Below are positions 1,208 to 32,300 of a stretch of 40,000 nucleotides of DNA, piece after piece. The DNA is from Halobacterium sp. CBA1126. Its GTDB lineage: Archaea > Halobacteriota > Halobacteria > Halobacteriales > Halobacteriaceae. The DNA is taken from contig NZ_WPCF01000007.1 of NCBI RefSeq assembly GCF_009741975.1, positions 5,311 to 45,310 of the forward strand, read 5' to 3'. A program made the translations under genes and the position numbers. Each line of letters starts with the position of its first letter. The stretch's first letter is position 1. The notes below the pieces were generated by a model, which saw only the letters and a program-made list of their open reading frames with translations, ran no database searches and was not told the origin of the DNA.

Positions 1208-1477
1208 TCAGGTCGAGATCGGGTCGCGGTGCCAACCGGGGTCGTGGCCCGTGCGCTCGATGAGGTCCGAGCGGCAGGCCGGACAGAAGTCGGGAACGGA
1301 CGAGTCGCTCCGGGGAACGTACACCGCGCCGCCACACTCCACGCACGCGTCGTCGACGACGGTCGCACAGTCCGCGCAGACGTTGAAGTCGTCGACTGTC
1401 AAATCTCGAAGGGGTTCGAGTTGTTTGTCCAGGACGTACTCGTCGATGACCGTCTGACAGTTTTGGCACGGTTTCAT
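1208..1477 (-). CDS. small zinc-ribbon protein (four Cys pairs)
   Basis: Last 89 codons of ORF 1208..1753, starting at the ATG (cat 1475-1477): MKPCQNCQ...CADC...CVEC...CPAC. The upstream part of the long ORF is Arg/Ser-rich and lies in a repeat element, so the internal start is preferred. Confidence 0.6.
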   Translation of the reverse strand: MKPCQNCQTVIDEYVLDKQLEPLRDLTVDDFNVCADCATVVDDACVECGGAVYVPRSDSSVPDFCPACRSDLIERTGHDPGWHRDPIST

Positions 1478-1559: not shown

Positions 1560-1810
1560 GGAAGCATCCGCGAGCGGGGGTTCTCTGAACCCCCGCGAAG
1601 CGGTTCACTTCGCGACCGAGCGTAGCGAGGGAGCGAAGGCCGACGACTGAACGGAGTCGTTCGAGAGAGCGAAGCTCTCTCGTGATGACGAGAGACGCCG
1701 CTGGCGTCTCTCGAACCACGAAGCGAAGTGAAGGCGGAGTGCTTTTTCCGCAAGTTTTTGCCGAACGGGGGTCGCCTGCGGCGACCCCCGTGCAGCGCAA
1801 AAAGTGCGCC
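1560..1810 (+). repeat. hairpin-mosaic intergenic repeat (includes cassette copy C at 1742..1804)
   Basis: Chain of perfect GC-rich hairpins at 1574-1596, 1643-1660, 1662-1682, 1690-1712 and 1766-1790. Collinear blocks are shared with the reverse complement of 13670..13925. Confidence 0.8.
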
Positions 1811-3061
1811 TTAGACGCCCGTGCTGTACCGCAGCAGGCCGGCGATGCCGCCGAAGGCGGTGAGCAGCTGTTCGCCCTTCTCGAAGTCGGTGGAGATGAA
1901 GTGGGTGTCCGTGCCGCGCTGTTCGGCGATCTCCATGAGGTGGTCGATGGCGTCGTCGCGCTCGTCGACTTCGGCGTCCTCGCCGCACTCCGAGCAGGTG
2001 TGTTCGGGGGTGTCGGCGCGCTGGCTGACGAGTTCGCGTTCCTCGTGGCCGTTCGGGCACTCGTAGGTGACGACGTCCTTCCGGAGGTCCTCGGAGATGA
2101 GCAGCGTCTCCACGGAGCCCATGACGAGGTTCTTCCGCGTGGGCTCGAAGCCGTAGGTGGCGAGGTCGCCGCCGTTGAGCTCCTGGAAGAACTCCTCCAT
2201 GTCGGACTTGTCGTCCATCAGGTCGGCTTCCGCGAGCGTGTCCTGCGCGCGGTCGACGAGCTCCTTCAGGCCGGACTCGTCGGTGTAGGAGACGTCGAAC
2301 TTCCCGAGGACGTGGTCCTGGAGCTCGTGGTGGAGGTAGTCGCCGTCGAGGAACTCGTCTTTCGTCGGCGACGGGCCGCCGACGAGGATGCCGTCGAGTT
2401 CGTGGCGCTTCGGGACGAAGAGGTCGTCGGCCATCCCGGCGACCTCCTGGTAGAAGTTGTCGATGGCTTCCAGCCGGAGGCGGGCGAACCGCTGTGCGGA
2501 CTGGCCGCCCTTCCGCTGCTTGCCGGGGACGAGGCTGGACGCGGACTTGACGGCCTCGATGCGCTTGCCCTTCAGCCAGCCGACGTTGGCTTCGCGGCGA
2601 TCGAGGACGATGAGCCCGTAGAGGCCCTTGTCCCCGAGCATCTCCTCGAGGGGTTCGGTGAGGAACTCGTCGTCACAGTGGTAGCGGAACGACTGGATCT
2701 CCTGTGGCGGGGACTCCAGGACCTCCGTCACCATCTCCGTGCGGCCGCCGCCGGTGTCGACCGCGCCGGAGAAGACGACGAGGCCGTTCTCGGGCGGGAA
2801 CGTGTCGTAGTACCGCAGCCGGTCCTTGATTGACTTCAGCGCGTCCTGGACGTTCGTCCGGGTCTGCTTGGACTTGATGTTGGAGGCTTCCGAGTGCTCC
2901 TGCGTGACGTGGGCGACGACGTCCGAGATCTGCTTGTCCGGGGGGATGTAGATGGTCACCAGCTGGGTGCCGCTCCCGGTGTAGTCCTTCAGGTCCTCGA
3001 TGACCTTCTGGAACTCGTACTTCCGGCGGTCCTCGGACGGTGCGCCCTCCTGCTCGCTCAT
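1811..3061 (-). CDS. prf1: peptide chain release factor aRF1
   Basis: Within ORF 1811..3166; ATG (cat 3059-3061) gives MSEQEG.... NIKS motif (SNIKSKQTR) and GGQ motif (RKGGQSAQRF); about 416 aa. Confidence 0.95.
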   Translation of the reverse strand: MSEQEGAPSEDRRKYEFQKVIEDLKDYTGSGTQLVTIYIPPDKQISDVVAHVTQEHSEASNIKSKQTRTNVQDALKSIKDRLRYYDTFPPENGLVVFSGAVDTGGGRTEMVTEVLESPPQEIQSFRYHCDDEFLTEPLEEMLGDKGLYGLIVLDRREANVGWLKGKRIEAVKSASSLVPGKQRKGGQSAQRFARLRLEAIDNFYQEVAGMADDLFVPKRHELDGILVGGPSPTKDEFLDGDYLHHELQDHVLGKFDVSYTDESGLKELVDRAQDTLAEADLMDDKSDMEEFFQELNGGDLATYGFEPTRKNLVMGSVETLLISEDLRKDVVTYECPNGHEERELVSQRADTPEHTCSECGEDAEVDERDDAIDHLMEIAEQRGTDTHFISTDFEKGEQLLTAFGGIAGLLRYSTGV

Positions 3062-3168
3062 TACCCGGAGATAGCCGGCGTGCGCGTAAGTAACCTTTGA
3101 CCTCCGGGTTTCGGGGCGCCGGCCAGCGGCGGGGCGTCGGACGCTCGCACGCCGAATCCCGCCCAACG

Positions 3169-4188: not shown

Positions 4189-5942
4189 CTACATCGACTC
4201 CGGGGCTTCGATGCCGAGGACGTCCAGCGCGTTCGCCAGCGTGCGCCGCGCCGCGGTCACGAGCGCGAGGCGCGCGGCCGCCACGTCGTCGTCGACGTCC
4301 TCGCCGAGGACGTGCCGCGAGCGGTAGAACGCGTTGAACACGTCCACGAACTCGCGCGCGAACGTCGCGACCTGGTGTGGTTCGCGTTCGGCGGCGGCTT
4401 CCTCGACGACGCCCGGGAACCGCGCGATGGCCTTCAGGAGGTCGCGCTCCTCGGGCGTGTCGAGGAGGCCGGCGTCTAGTTCGGGCTTGAGGCCGTCGGC
4501 TTCCGCCGCGATGCCGCAGGCGCGGGCGTGGGCGTACTGGACGTAGGGCGCGCTCTGCCCCTCGAAGTCGAGGGCGTCCTCCCAGTCGAACGTGATGGCC
4601 TTCGTGGGCTGCTTGGAGACGATGTCGTAGCGCACCGCGCCGATGCCGACCTGCCGGGCGATGCGTTCGACGTCCTCGTCGGTGAGGTCGTCGCCGCGGA
4701 TGCGGTCGTCCAGCCGGGAGCGGACGGCCTCCTCGGCGCGCGCGACGGCCTCGTCGAGCAGGTCGTCCATGTCGACGCCCGTCCCCTGCCGGGTGCTCAT
4801 CGACTCGCCGCCCGGGAGGTTCACCCACGCGTAGAACACCTCTTCGAGGCGGTCCGTGTCGTTCCCGAGGATGTCGAGGGCGGCGTTGAGCTTGTTCGCG
4901 TGCAGCTCCTGGTCCTCGCCGAGCACCGTGATGGCGTAGTCGAACGCCTCGAACTTCCACTCGTGGTGGGCGAGGTCCCGCGTCGTGTACAGCGTGGTGT
5001 CGTCCGAGCGCAGGAAGACGAACGACTGCTCGATGTCCCACGCTTCGAGGTCGAGCTGCCACGCGCCCTCCTCGCGGAAGGCGTGCTCGGAGTCCCGGAG
5101 GTCGTCGACGACGTCGTGCGTGGAGCCGTCACGGAGGAACCGCGTCTCCTTGACGAACTCGTCGAACTCCGCGGGGAGGCGCCCGAGGGTCTCCCGCATC
5201 CCGCCGAGCACCTGGTCGACGACGGTCTCGACGCGCTCGTAGGTCTCCTCGTCGCCGGCGTCCAGCCCCTCGATGATGGCCGCAATCTCTTCTTCGGCCT
5301 CCTCGACGGCCTCGGGGTCGCCCTCCTCGAGGAACTCGTTGCCCTTCCGGTAGTAGCGCACGAGCTCGTAGTCGGGCTTCTCGCGCTCGGGCTCGGGGAG
5401 GTCGCGCTCGTCGAAGGTCTCGTACGCCCACGTGAACACGGCCATCTGGCGGCCGGCGTCGTTGACGTAGTACTCGCGGGTGACGTCGTGGCCGGCGTAG
5501 TCGAGGACGCGAGCGAGCGCGTCGCCGAGAATCGGGTTGCGGGCGCGGCCGACGTGGACGGGCCCCGTGGGGTTCGCGCTCGTGTGCTCGACGACGACCG
5601 ACTGGCCGGTGTCCGGGAGCCGGCCCCACTCCTCGGACTGGGCGTCGGCGAGCGCGCCGTCGAAGTACGCCTCGCTGGGCGAGAAGTTCACGTACGGGCC
5701 CTGCGTGGACGCCTCGGCGACGTACTCGGCGTCCGAGAGGTCGACGCGTCGGCGATTTCGGCGGCGACCTCCGGCGGCGGCGCCTGCGCCTCGCCGGCGA
5801 GTCGGAACGCCACGCTGGACGCGAGCACGGCGGGCACGTCCGCGGGCGGTTCCTCGATGCCGAGGTCCTCGGTCGGGTAGCCGAGGTCGCCGAGGGCGGC
5901 GTCGAGGGCCGCCTCGACTTCGCGGCGGAAAGCGATGAACAT
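4189..5942 (-). pseudogene. argS: arginine--tRNA ligase, reading frame broken once at about 5746-5747 (probable sequence error)
   Basis: Catalytic and anticodon-binding body in ORF 4189..5691 ([17 protein letters not shown]). The N-terminal domain [33 protein letters not shown]... is in another frame (tail of ORF 5688..7325, ATG = cat 5940-5942). The frames join at sense GCC GAC GC|GTC GAC, one nucleotide short. Confidence 0.9.
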
Positions 5943-13125: not shown

Positions 13126-13669
13126 ATGGGTCTCGCAGCGACGGTCGCGACCGCAGTCTGGGTGATGCTGCCCGCCTACGTCCCCAACAACGCCGCGGTG
13201 CTCGCGGGCGGCGGCCGCCCCATCGACGGCGGCCGCACGTGGGGCGGCAAGCGCGTGCTCGGCGACGGGAAGACGTGGCGCGGCACCGCCGTCGGAACCC
13301 TCGCCGCGTCGCGCTCGCGCTCGCCCTGAACGCCGTCGAACACGCCGCCAGCGACGCGCTCGACGTCGCGCTCCCGGCGTTCCCACCCGCCGCGATGGTC
13401 GCGCTCCCCGCCGGCGCGATGCTCGGCGACGTCCTCGCCTCCTTCCTCAAGCGCCGCACCGGCCGCGAACGCGGCGCCGCCTTCCCCCTCCTCGACCAGC
13501 TCGACTTCGTCGTCGTCGCGCTCGCGCTCGCCGCCGTCGCCGCCCCCGCGTGGTTCGGCGCCACCTTCACCCTCGACGTCGTCGTCGCCATCCTCGTGCT
13601 CACCCCGCTGCTGCACGTCCTCACCAACGGCATCGCTACCTGCTCGGCCTGAAGCACGAGCCGTGGTGA
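13126..13669 (+). pseudogene. carS: CDP-archaeol synthase, frame broken twice (about 13306-13307 and 13635-13636); probable sequence errors
   Basis: Three frame segments: [36 protein letters not shown]...[15 protein letters not shown], then VALALALN...GAMLGDVLASFLKRRTG...LLDQLDFVV...LTNGIA, then YLLGLKHEPW*. Each junction leaves a 2-nt GC remnant. Confidence 0.75.
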
Positions 13670-13925
13670 GCGACCGTTTGCGCTGCGTTCGGCGCGCTTC
13701 GCGCGCCTCACTCGGCAAAAGCTCGGCCAAAAGCACTCCACGGCTCCAGCGCACCGCTTCGCGGTGCTTAGTCGCTCGTCGGCCCGCGCTCCCTCACTGT
13801 GTCCGGTCGCGGAGTGAACCGCTTCGTTCGGGTTCTTCGAACCGCTCACGGGTCACTCCGTTCCCCGTTCGCGCAAACCGAGGCGCTCGTCCCTCGCGCC
13901 TCGTGCCGCTCACTCGCGGATGCCT
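13670..13925 (-). repeat. hairpin-mosaic intergenic repeat, inverted copy of 1560..1810 (degenerate cassette D at about 13672..13738)
   Basis: The reverse complement shares ordered blocks with 1560-1810: GCATCCGCGAG, GAAGCGGTTCACT(T/C)CGCGACCG, GAGGGAGCG..GGCCGACGA, GGAGTGCTTTT, TTTTGCCGA, GCAGCGCAAA. Hairpins at 13691-13707, 13751-13767 and 13880-13902. Confidence 0.8.
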
Positions 13926-14002
13926 GTCACTGCTGGTCTCATCGCCGACAGAGTTAACACGGAGTGTAAGGTATACTTTACTGTAAAGCGAACTTTCCAC
14001 CC

Positions 14003-14443
14003 ATGTACGAGACAGACGACCCCTCCATCGAGCAACGGACGCGCTACCGCGAGTGGATGAACCGCTCGGTCGGCGCCGGCACCCTCGGGTTCTTCCTCGC
14101 GGTCGCCGTCAGCGTCCTCGCCAGCGGCCCCGTCACCGACTGGGTGCTGTTCGCCGGCCTCGGCGCCTACTACCTCGGGTACATCGGCTACCTCGCCGTC
14201 TGGCAGCGCACCGGCGTCCGCCACTTCGACGAACGCGAGGCCGAGATCGAGCGCCGCGCCGCCAGCCTCACCGCGGTGTTCGTCGTCAGCGTGACCATCT
14301 TCGGGCTCCCCGGCCTCGTCGTCGTTCAGGGGACCGACGTCGCCACCGTCCCCGCGTTCGTCGAGGGCGTCGTCTGGGGGTACATGGGGCTGGTGCTCGT
14401 GTTCCTCGGGCTCTACGGGTACGTGGAGCGGCGGTACTCGTGA
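14003..14443 (+). CDS. four-TM membrane protein (DUF2178-like)
   Basis: 146 aa with four hydrophobic helices. Stop overlaps the GTG of the downstream XRE regulator (GTGA). Confidence 0.6.
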   Translation: MYETDDPSIEQRTRYREWMNRSVGAGTLGFFLAVAVSVLASGPVTDWVLFAGLGAYYLGYIGYLAVWQRTGVRHFDEREAEIERRAASLTAVFVVSVTIFGLPGLVVVQGTDVATVPAFVEGVVWGYMGLVLVFLGLYGYVERRYS

Positions 14444-29511: not shown

Positions 29512-29593
29512 GCCGGGATGGCCGAATGGCAAAGCGCACGCCTGGAAAGCGTGTCCCCTTACGGGGTTCAGGGTTCAAATCCCTGTCCCGGCG
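29512..29593 (+). tRNA. tRNA-Ser (anticodon GGA)
   Basis: Folded by hand. Acceptor GCCGGGA/TCCCGGC, discriminator G. Anticodon arm CACGC-CTGGAAA-GCGTG, long variable arm (TCCCCTTACGGGGT), T arm CAGGG-TTCAAAT-CCCTG. CCA is not encoded. Confidence 0.9.
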
Positions 29594-30293: not shown

Positions 30294-31964
30294 ATGGCAC
30301 AACAACAGCAGCGGATGCAGGGTCAGCCCATGATCATCATGGGCGACGACGCCCAGCGCGTGAAGGACAAGGACGCCCAGGAGCACAACATCTCCGCGGC
30401 GCGAGCGGTCGCGGACGCCGTCCGCTCCACACTCGGCCCGAAAGGGATGGACAAGATGCTCGTCTCCTCGATGGGCGACGTCACCATCACGAACGACGGC
30501 GTCACCATCCTCCAGGAGATGGACATCGACAACCCGACCGCGGAGATGATCGTCGAAGTCGCCGAGACCCAGGAGGACGAGGCCGGCGACGGCACGACGA
30601 CCGCGGTCGCCATCGCGGGCGAACTCCTCAAGAACGCCGAGGAGCTCCTCGAGCGCGACATCCACCCGACCGCCATCATCAAGGGGTACAACCTCGCCGC
30701 CGAACAGGCCCGCGAGGAAGTCGACAACGTCGCCATCGACGTCGACCCCGACGACGAGGACCTCATCCGCAGCGTCGCGGAGACCTCGATGACCGGCAAG
30801 GGCGCCGAGCTCGACAAGGAGCTGCTCTCCGGCATCATCTACGACGCCATCAACCAGGTCGCCGTCGAAGCCGCCGACGGCAGCACGGTCGTCGACGCCG
30901 CGAACATCAACGTCGAGACCCAGACCGGCCGCGCGGTCGGTGACTCCGAGCTCCTCGTCGGCGCCGCCGTCGACAAGGACCCGGTCCACGACGAGATGCC
31001 CACGGACGTCGAGGACGCGAAGATCCTCCTCCTCAACGAGGCCATCGAAGTCGAGGAAGCCGAAGCCGACACCTCCGTCAACATCGAGAGCCCCGACCAG
31101 CTCCAGCAGTTCCTCGACCAGGAAGAGGAACAGCTCAAGCAGAAGGTCCAGCAGATCAAGGACACGGGCGCCAACGTCGTCTTCTGCCAGAAGGGCATCG
31201 ACGACATGGCCCAGCACTACCTCGCGAAGGAGGGCATCCTCGCGGTGCGCCGCACCAAGAAGTCCGACATCGAGTTCCTGACGAACGTCCTCAACGCGTC
31301 GGTCGTCACGGACCTCGACTCCGCGACCGAGGCCGACGTCGCCACCGGCTCCGTCTCTCGCGACAGCGAGGACGAGCTGTTCTACGTCGAAGGCGACGAC
31401 GAGGACGCCCACGGCGTCACCATCCTCCTGCGCGGCTCCACCGACCACGTCGTCGACGAGCTCGAGCGCGGCGTCACTGACGCCCTCGACGTCTCCGCGC
31501 AGACGCTCTCGGACGGCCGCGTCCTCCCCGGCGGCGGCGCCATCGAAGTCGAAGTCGCCGACCGCCTCCGCGACTACGCGGACTCCGTCTCCGGCCGCGA
31601 GCAGCTCGCCGTCGAAGCGTTCGCGGACTCGCTGGAGCTCGTGCCGCGCGTGCTCGCCGAGAACGCCGGCCTCGACTCCATCGACACGCTCGTCGACCTG
31701 CGCTCCGCCCACGAATCCGGCGAGGAGCGCACCGGCCTGAACGTGCTCTCCGGCGACCTCGAGGACACCTTCGAAGCCGGTGTCGTCGAGCCCGCACACG
31801 CCAAAGAGCAGGCCGTCACGAGCGCCTCCGAGGCCGCGAACCTCGTGCTCAAAATCGACGACATCATCTCCGCCGGCGACCTCTCCACCGACAAGGGCGA
31901 CGACGAAGGTGGCGCCGGCGGCATGGGCGGCGGTATGGGCGGCGGCATGGGCGGCATGATGTAA
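30294..31964 (+). CDS. ths: thermosome subunit (group II chaperonin)
   Basis: ORF 30213..31964, ATG 30294 ([16 protein letters not shown]). [25 protein letters not shown] and VLPGGGA motifs; C-terminal [15 protein letters not shown] tail. Confidence 0.95.
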
Positions 31965-31987
31965 AATCGGTCTGAGACCGATTTTAC
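31961..31987 (+). terminator. perfect 12-bp-stem hairpin overlapping the thermosome stop codon, ending in a T-tract
   Basis: GTAAAATCGGTC-TGA-GACCGATTTTAC; the stem includes the TAA at 31962-31964. Confidence 0.5.
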
Positions 31988-32024
31988 AGCAGCCGACGGA
32001 GCTCCGCTCAGTCGGAATGATGTA

Positions 32025-32090
32025 GTACCTTTTTGCCACGCTCGGCGCGCTCGGCGCGCCGTCGCTGGCAAAAAGCTACGCTAAAAAGCG
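32025..32090 (-). repeat. T5/A5-flanked hairpin cassette, copy B (inverted relative to copy A)
   Basis: The reverse complement reads GCGCTTTTTAGCGTAGCTTTTTGCCA...TGGCAAAAAGGTAC. Copy A reads GGGCTTTTTTAGCGTAGATTTTTGCGG...CCGGAAAAAGGTAC. Confidence 0.85.
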
Positions 32091-32300
32091 CCGTCACCCA
32101 CCTTCGGTGGGTTCGCGCCCGAGCGCTCCGCGCTCGGTGAATCGCGCGGCTCCGCCGCGCGAATGCTACCCGTTCCGCGTCGCACCGCTTCCGCGTCGCT
32201 TCGCGCTGCACCGCTCGCTGGCTATCTCGTCTTTCTTTCGGCGCTCGTCGGGTAGCGGCGGCTCAGTCGTTCGGGTGGTCGTCGAAAGAGTGGGTCTGCG

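Follow-up and report, generated by a model that had tools for sequence, protein, structure and literature searches.

The closest described counterparts of the element reported here are the REP and BIME repeats of enterobacteria and pseudomonads. Like our element, they are extragenic, occur in many copies, are often located just past stop codons and form DNA-level mosaics of GC-rich palindromes and short conserved linkers. BIMEs are implicated in termination, in mRNA 3′-end protection and in protein binding. Our element lies in a 40,000-nt stretch of DNA from Halobacterium sp. CBA1126 (contig NZ_WPCF01000007.1, positions 5,311 to 45,310 of the forward strand), hereafter the window, where it covers positions 13670–13923 directly downstream of carS. 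It differs from REP/BIME in the part that is conserved. There, the palindrome sequence is the conserved, species-specific unit, whereas here the palindromes vary (30 arm sequences in 59 copies) and it is the linkers that stay unchanged from one family of Halobacteria to another. A test for REP character accordingly failed: the hairpin arms differ between copies, even between orthologues, and no GTAG/CGTC head was seen.

Within the haloarchaea, the PATEs and SMRs of Haloquadratum walsbyi (PMC3119063) resemble our element in being non-coding and palindrome-rich, in the lack of terminal inverted repeats on the large element and in nested targeting. A short module nested in the other copy in the window (module M, see below) is SMR-like in its terminal inverted repeats and in the absence of a target duplication. 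The ends of PATEs match those of IS605-type transposons, and homogeneous PATEs are >90% identical over their full length (PMC3119063). In contrast, copies of our element share linkers only, occupy conserved sites behind housekeeping genes and include three with long target duplications. Palindromes are found close to the left end of our element. The MITEHsal1-14 and ISH2 elements of Halobacterium salinarum are non-autonomous repeats from the same genus, ∼400–520 bp long and AT-rich (∼48% G+C), with ISH-related terminal inverted repeats and short target-site duplications (PMC7002104), but they show no sequence or architectural resemblance to our element. The element also failed as a MITE (a transposable element of miniature size with inverted repeats): as a whole it lacks terminal inverted repeats (the two ends read X-TTTTGC, where X is a 5-nt arm, and CGCGGATGC), and flanking repeats were found at only 3 of ∼83 copies (32, 47, and 77 bp).

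Two further systems resemble the left part of the element. As in archaeal oligo-T terminators (PMC7237163), a run of T4–5 followed by G/C is found 3–10 nt past the stop codon in the sense direction, and two T4–5 runs are present on the other strand. The known terminators, however, consist of the T-stretch alone, whereas here a conserved mosaic of 130–260 nt with covarying stems is seen, and the run of the carS copy is T3. Integron attC sites likewise lie directly 3′ of an open reading frame (ORF) in fixed orientation, with conserved outer boxes and a stem that has an asymmetric internal loop and a variable palindromic tip; structure is conserved over sequence, and the action is at the DNA level. 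Our element reaches far past such a single stem. An attC reading of the left stem was rejected, since the R″/R′ core sites (RYYYAAC / GTTRRRY) are absent as a rule, the neighbors are syntenic housekeeping genes, and there is no integrase or cassette array.

We are nearly certain that 13670–13923 is one member of an old, dispersed family of non-coding elements of Halobacteria. The surrounding spacer (spacer 2, 13670–14002) is located 3′ of carS, which is on the plus strand, and 5′ of a DUF2178/HTH_3 operon. A second spacer of the window (spacer 1, 1478–1810) is located 3′ of aRF1 (1811–3166, minus strand). A profile hidden Markov model (HMM) was built from 69 copies of other genomes, with no window sequence included. 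It matched 13670–13852 at E = 8.4e-25 and, in spacer 1, 1806–1572 at E = 4.6e-19. All blocks of the family are present in family order within 13677–13923.

Family copies were located by scanning one genome per species for the block pair CGGCAAAA-N-AAAAGCACTCC as an anchor. This yielded at least 117 stretches, with ∼70 of those listed belonging to Halobacteria. The two blocks are 8 nt apart in the halobacterial matches, or 9 nt in a Halobacterium subtype, while the gaps of the bacterial matches are scattered over 6–11 nt, as chance predicts. Among the matches listed, many genomes have 3–5 exact-anchor copies. The family was found in Halobacterium, Natrinema, Natronorubrum, Natronococcus, and Halovivax, with single copies in Haloferax and Haloprofundus, and the most similar copies lie in Halobacterium genomes. 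The full-length HMM added just five copies without the anchor in 0.7 Mb of flanking sequence; block HMMs of 20–30 nt were too insensitive for a census of further copies. A BLAST search against haloarchaeal plasmids detected the spacer 2 architecture at unrelated loci in Natrinema and Halomontanus, and the element is present on both plasmids and chromosomes. Only two matches were found among 2.9 million viral contigs. When one genome per species was scanned for exact occurrences of the block of the window that is conserved best, GAAGCGGTTCACTNCGCGACC, no match was obtained; this core is restricted to close relatives and does not serve as a family signature.

The family is apparently undescribed so far. 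Rfam 15 holds no matching family, with noise only (12–16 bits) for the two spacers at E ≤ 10 and nothing for 15 canonical loci. ARAGORN detected only the tRNA-Ser at 29512 in the window. No description was found in the open-access full-text literature, also when searched with verbatim block sequences, although less searchable literature could hold one.

In family order, the stop codon is followed by 3–10 nt including the arm X, then T3–5 GC(G/T)CTGCG, a perfect hairpin in slot 1, CTCGGCAAAA, a stretch of 8 or 9 nt (N8/9) whose first bases pair with X, AAAAGCACTCC(TCC), slot 2, (G)TCGTCGGCC(CGC), slot 3, GTGAACCG(CTTCG), a hairpin in slot 4 and the right end CGCGGATGC. In Halobacterium the right end reads CTC(A/G)CTCGCGGATGC, and Natrialbaceae copies have related right ends. 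The linker blocks AAAAGCACTCC, TCGTCGGCC, GTGAACCG, and CGCGGATGC are invariant and rich in pyrimidines, and the slots contain perfect palindromes or nested mini-elements that vary among copies. The T-run of the family sits in a long stem, X-TTTTGC ... GCAAAA-X′. The left arm T3–5 GC(G/T)CTGCG is present in 75 of 84 family copies, and nearly all of these 75 have T4–5. The features of the carS copy and of the other member in the window are listed here, with compared loci given by L numbers (L007 is from the sister species).

13670–13687, plus strand: left end, consisting of the outer-stem arm X GCGACCG, the T-run TTT (13677–13679) and the invariant GCGCTGCG
13691–13707: hairpin slot 1, perfect palindrome GGCGCGC-TTC-GCGCGCC
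13713–13739, plus strand: family anchor CGGCAAAA, N8 GCTCGGCC (3′ arm of the outer stem) and AAAAGCACTCC
13751–13767: hairpin slot 2, GCACCGC-TTC-GCGGTGC, absent in the orthologous spacer of L007
13776–13795, plus strand: invariant linker TCGTCGGCC, then CGCGCTCCCTC
13804–13826, plus strand: core 23-mer CGGTCGCGGAGTGAACCGCTTCG, a 22/23 match to 1596–1618, including GTGAACCG at 13814–13821
13831–13843: hairpin slot 4, GGTTC-TTC-GAACC
13842–13905, plus strand: 64-nt nested module CACGGG...CCCGTTCG with hairpin GAGGCGC..GCGCCTC (13880–13902), absent in L007
13913–13923, plus strand: right-end block CTCGCGGATGC, reverse complement of GCATCCGCGAG at 1564–1574
1564–1806, minus strand: other member in the window, N9/T5 subtype, 3′ of aRF1
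1655–1722: module M, nested in that member, 60–65 nt, terminal inverted repeats TCGTTCGA/TCGAACCA; two covarying hairpins surround GTGATGAC
13972–13988, plus strand: TATA-like box and palindrome CTTTACTGTAAAG, outside the element, preceding the leaderless DUF2178/HTH_3 operon (ATG 14003)

Of 70 copies, 59 hold a perfect hairpin in slot 1, and its arms come in 30 different sequences; in the orthologue of the sister species, GGCGGCC-TGC-GGCCGCC takes this place. In other Halobacterium copies, slot 4 is filled by GGCTT/AAGCC, GGCTC/GAGCC or GGTCC/GGACC. The 64-nt module is flanked by an 8-nt direct repeat, CCGCTCAC, at 13842–13849 and 13906–13913, as read from the sequence. The right-end block CTCGCGGATGC is kept in the Halobacterium-type copies L007, L098, L106, L067, and L104.

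The copies are biased in both position and orientation. A same-strand ORF ends at most 40 nt upstream in 41 of 83 copies, while an opposite-strand ORF is that close in six. Convergent genes follow 39 copies and co-directional genes 27, with gene context taken from a crude GC3-based gene caller. The T-run begins 3–10 nt past a same-strand stop codon in 42 copies; for the carS copy the stop is at 13667–13669 and the T-run starts at 13677. Most of the upstream genes are core genes. Those confirmed with Pfam encode L10e, TFS, RadA, GyrB, and SAM synthetase, and from C-terminal sequences only we recognized two thermosome paralogues and NusA-, CDC48-, and PolD-like genes. One and the same upstream gene bears the element in several genera; judging from this distribution, the copies so shared are old and vertically inherited. 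Subtypes do not always follow the locus. The carS-orthologous copy of L098 has the left-arm subtype of the aRF1 copy of the window, and in L106 the spacer 2 subtype is found behind SAM synthetase, so arms have been exchanged or replaced between loci.

Conservation is concentrated in the linkers. Between the window and L007, the fourfold sites of seven flanking genes are 78% identical, and so are the aligned columns of the element, which also has 93 gap columns. The identity lies in blocks, with runs of 19, 19, 16, and 11 nt. The slot 1 hairpins of the two are unrelated, slot 2 is empty in L007, and the 64-nt module is specific to the window in this pair. In copies downstream of thermosome genes from several Natrialbaceae genera, GTCGTCGGCCCG is identical in all nine examined and TTTTGCTC in eight of the nine, whereas the fourfold sites of these thermosome genes are 74–87% identical. 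The blocks used for this comparison had not been employed to find the copies. Because the blocks are invariant while fourfold sites diverge, the linkers are constrained or homogenized, and the contents of the slots turn over.

The pairing of the left module was evaluated in an alignment of 42 sequences, with the outer stem and the slot 1 hairpin as the named structure. This structure is paired in 90.3% of cells, compared to 68.4% when the 3′ partners are shuffled and 37–42% when they are slid. Two-sided changes are seen in 149 cells vs. 52 in shuffles, the covariation score is 0.418 vs. 0.089, and one outer-stem position shows all four Watson–Crick pair types. In a permutation test, 25 of 43 distinct X/N8 combinations paired completely, whereas permuted sets averaged 3.3 and reached at most 9. 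Among the ∼700 paired cells, one-sided changes account for one cell and G·U pairs for two. In 83 elements there are 178 stems with a length of 7 bp or more, and 116 of these are perfect, vs. 12 of 62 in coding controls of equal length. Mismatches occur without strand bias (39 G·T vs. 27 A·C), and loops are seen in both orientations (TTC 25, GAA 15). In a selected RNA helix, one would expect G·U pairs as well as a strand preference. As the former are nearly absent and the latter is not seen, the hairpins are evidently palindromes at the DNA level, and they are replaced wholesale.

Occasionally, the element has inserted de novo with a long target duplication. Direct repeats of host DNA flank three copies, L027 (∼reverse-strand 5380), L044 (∼1400), and L079 (∼5029), and are 32 bp (to ∼71 with mismatches), 77 bp and 47 bp long, respectively. 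They consist of the last 20–25 codons and the stop of a convergent gene, which remains intact; the duplicated genes are aminotransferase-like, GNAT-like, and SufS-like. The duplication-flanked units have a constant left end, while the right end differs (228, 130, and 113 nt). In L079, an additional third partial copy of the gene end and a TCGCGG microhomology at the junction were observed. In L119 (reverse strand, past the anchor at 5675), a copy is broken after slot 2 by unrelated sequence of lower GC content, seemingly the start of a gene, and this interruption may be the insertion of another mobile element.

Modules also move between copies. The 64-nt module of the window is 82% identical to L106 7302–7369, which lies in another slot of another copy. 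Module M recurs at seven other loci, in both orientations, and its GTGATGAC segment occurs in 22 plasmid records that cover more than 10 genera of haloarchaea. Loci with module M besides the window are L002, L003, L004, L023, L040, L049, L093, and L125. In L125 it is cleanly inserted between CTG and CG of the family left arm, without target duplication. We considered the GTGATGAC junction as a hammerhead or a C/D-box (K-turn) and rejected both, as the partner motifs GAAA/CUGA vary between copies and no Rfam model fires.

On balance, we lean toward the view that the element is an old, once-mobile mosaic of BIME/PATE-like character that has been retained at gene 3′ ends, probably as a T-tract terminator or a boundary. 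Its spread would have been that of a DNA insertion, either mobile without autonomy or templated, and copies landing just past stop codons would have been retained because the left module would act as a transcription boundary. The sense T-run and the two antisense T-runs, which arise from A-runs, could serve as archaeal oligo-T terminators in both directions. The GC palindromes and linkers may form a pause or roadblock at the DNA level, or a binding platform for a conserved factor. In both directions a T-run is followed by GC-rich palindromic DNA. In the window, the element stands between carS and the DUF2178/HTH_3 operon, which is promoted independently. T-stretches are the sites of intergenic termination in H. 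volcanii, where T5C gave 95% termination (PMC7237163).

Several observations weigh against a retained terminator. The T-run of the carS copy is only T3, and a scan for bacterial-type promoter and terminator consensus sequences found none in 13400–14200. The T-run is located 5′ of the hairpin and not 3′, hence the element is not a bacterial-type intrinsic terminator. The ∼150–250 nt of conserved linkers past the T-run would be superfluous for a simple terminator, and the invariance of the linkers could also reflect gene conversion among copies rather than selection. None of the three copies with fresh duplications follows a sense stop codon; they are antisense to the gene whose end is duplicated. 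Finally, an exact match to a single anchor served to find the copies; their numbers and taxonomic range are minimum values, and the sample behind the context statistics is biased.

A more far-reaching version, which we put forward tentatively, is that of a class-wide, vertically inherited “hairpin-cassette” boundary element. Its linkers would be read by a conserved trans-acting factor, its slots rewritten in the DNA by a templated or ssDNA-hairpin mechanism, and it would copy itself to new gene ends with long target duplications. Such an element would be the haloarchaeal counterpart of BIMEs, domesticated for bidirectional termination or chromosome organization.

Alternatively, the element could be purely selfish, a non-autonomous element of the MITE/PATE/SMR kind without host function. 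It would be mobilized in trans, e.g., by an IS200/IS605-type or other enzyme that recognizes ssDNA hairpins, with the linkers as recognition sequences of the enzyme and the proximity to stop codons as a product of target preference and tolerance. We regard this as possible but rather doubtful. The three copies with flanking target duplications fit such a history, but the lengths of the duplications vary (32–77 bp), unlike target-site duplications made by a transposase, and the whole element lacks terminal inverted repeats. Module M and other palindromic modules are nested in both orientations, and the PATEs and SMRs of Haloquadratum are analogous, being free of a transposase and inserting into each other (PMC3119063); no associated transposase gene was seen here, though no systematic search was made. 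The DNA-level nature of the palindromes, with G·U pairs nearly absent, and the presence of elements on plasmids and chromosomes are also consistent with a selfish origin. However, the copies within a genome are not near-identical and share linkers only. Moreover, different genera have the element at the same gene, and linker conservation exceeds the synonymous level, which is unexpected for decaying selfish DNA.

It is unlikely that the element functions as a structured RNA, either as a 3′-UTR element of the upstream mRNA, in stability or regulation, or as an independent antisense small RNA ending at GGAGUGCUUUU. The stems do covary strongly, and the linker blocks appear conserved and single-stranded, but G·U pairs and one-sided changes are virtually absent from the stems of the left module, mismatches have no strand bias and the palindromes occur in both loop orientations. 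Both strands of the carS copy fold moderately better than shuffles (z = −2.4 and −2.95), but no Rfam match was obtained at any threshold. The antisense T4–5 runs could end an RNA of ∼190 nt; however, there is no consistent antisense promoter, and in L098 the stop codon of a convergent gene is located ∼20 nt past the right end of the element, as judged from the sequence. On the sense strand, the T-run at the start of the element would end most transcription ahead of the remainder.

The initial annotation of the window had described the carS spacer as a second, inverted and decaying copy of spacer 1. That the two spacers are homologous mosaics was borne out. The reverse complement of 13670–13925 is collinear with 1560–1810, and the proposed shared blocks are found in identical order at the following positions, most of them being unique within the 40 kb.

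1564 and, reverse-complemented, 13913: GCATCCGCGAG
1597 and 13813: GAAGCGGTTCACT
1627 and 13787: GAGGGAGCG
1638 and 13776: GGCCGACGA
1736 and 13729: GGAGTGCTTTT
1756 and 13712: TTTTGCCGA
1792 and 13677: GCAGCGCAAA

The pairwise alignment gave a Smith–Waterman score of 68, whereas 300 dinucleotide shuffles scored 22.2 ± 3.1 and at most 40, and the non-inverted orientation scored 20. Among the inverted repeats of the window, the spacer pair ranks first and is the longest (I1, 68 nt, 79%), and nhmmer with spacer 2 as query aligned 13673–13854 to 1805–1565 on the minus strand at E = 7.4e-10. Strong similarity is confined to a core of ∼80 nt and short blocks, while the remainder is aligned solely via block order. 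The three hairpins that had been named (13691–13707, 13751–13767, and 13880–13902, listed above) are exact, and the peptide RSRSEPLR, given as a marker of the homology, is found in both spurious ORFs. The suggested modular shuffling is seen as well: the 64-nt segment (∼13842–13905) recurs in Halobacterium L106 at another locus and in another slot, and module M is a separate insertion.

The relationship drawn between the two spacers, in contrast, did not hold. A recent intragenomic inverted duplication of the 1560–1810 spacer, now decaying, would agree with the collinear blocks, the 22/23 core match and the equal spacer lengths, but is very improbable. Scored against spacer 2, spacer 1 (68) ranks only 12th of 17, behind copies of other genomes such as L098, L044, L106, and L114 (130, 117, 113, and 109), and spacer 1 is likewise closest to foreign copies and not to spacer 2. 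In addition, the sister-species comparison of the spacer downstream of carS found the element at the orthologous site in L007 and L098, both from other species. Both spacers are indeed 333 bp long (1478–1810 and 13670–14002) if carS is read to the TGA at 13667–13669, but this is a coincidence, because the orthologous spacer of L007 is 257 bp. The tracts that had been taken as signs of decay, A4...A4, are the norm of the family (N8 subtype), and T5/A5/A5 of spacer 1 represents a Halobacterium-specific N9 subtype. Spacer 2 even fits the family profile better than spacer 1 (85 vs. 67 bits), the sole shortfall of its tracts being the first T-run, T3, which is one base below the T4 of the sister species. 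Their inversion exists in window coordinates only, aRF1 being on the minus strand and carS on the plus strand; both copies point the same way with respect to the gene upstream of them.

Chance similarity of GC-rich, hairpin-prone spacers, as might be suspected at a G+C content of 69.5% in the window and with many low-identity “repeats” in any self-comparison, can be dismissed, given an alignment score ∼15 standard deviations above dinucleotide shuffles, the nhmmer match at E = 7.4e-10 and the independent family profile at E = 8.4e-25.

The carS stop used above, TGA 13667–13669 on the plus strand, is that of the intact gene in GCA_049705405.1 (L001), which is 99.6% identical to the window over 20.4 kb. 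Compared to this intact gene, carS of the window lacks a single nucleotide at each of two positions, 13306 and 13636. Altogether, four 1-base deletions relative to L001 were observed (window 5746, 13306, 13636, and 21643), every one of them intragenic and two causing frameshifts in carS. These are probably assembly errors and not real pseudogenes.

Downstream of the element, the palindrome CTTTACTGTAAAG (13976–13988) is kept in L007–L010, including loci without the repeat element, and the co-transcribed HTH_3 regulator likely uses it as its operator. It is located at 2975 in L007, 2966 in L008, 1059 in L009, and 215 in L010, which range from Halobacterium to Haloterrigena and metagenomic contigs. 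On the other side of spacer 1, an 89-aa ORF (1208–1477, minus strand) begins directly after the spacer. It is rich in CxxC pairs and zinc-ribbon-like; an overlapping longer ORF call gave no Pfam match.

A third hairpin-mosaic spacer was noticed at 31960–32300 of the window, behind a thermosome gene (stop 31962–31964), the gene behind which canonical family copies are found in Natrialbaceae. A perfect 13-bp hairpin overlaps the stop. Behind it come T4, a left module that is family-like but diverged (TTTTTGCC-hairpin-GGCAAAAAG-N7-AAAAAGCGCC) and a block CCGAGCGC-TCC-GCGCTCGG / GTGAATCG. The family HMM matched 31965–32300 at E = 0.05 only, and we make no confident assignment of this spacer to the family. 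In L049 (3327–3624) and L114 (4653–5015), two elements are arranged tail-to-tail between convergent genes, and the first element of the L114 pair begins beside the stop codon of its gene.

To our knowledge, the ends of archaeal genes and the insulation of their transcription units are poorly understood, and we know of almost no cis elements beyond the T-run. The family described here is a recognizable, conserved module located 3–10 nt past the stop codons of core genes (thermosome paralogues, L10e, TFS, RadA, GyrB, carS, aRF1) in many haloarchaeal genera, and a role in termination or at the 3′ end is directly testable with existing Haloferax reporter assays. Spacers with the element create spurious ORFs, such as those with RSRSEPLR, that are able to contaminate annotation, and a family profile would mask these. 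The combination of invariant linkers, wholesale replacement of palindromes without G·U intermediates and duplications of 32–77 bp points to a renewal or mobility of palindromes at the DNA level that is uncharacterized in archaea.

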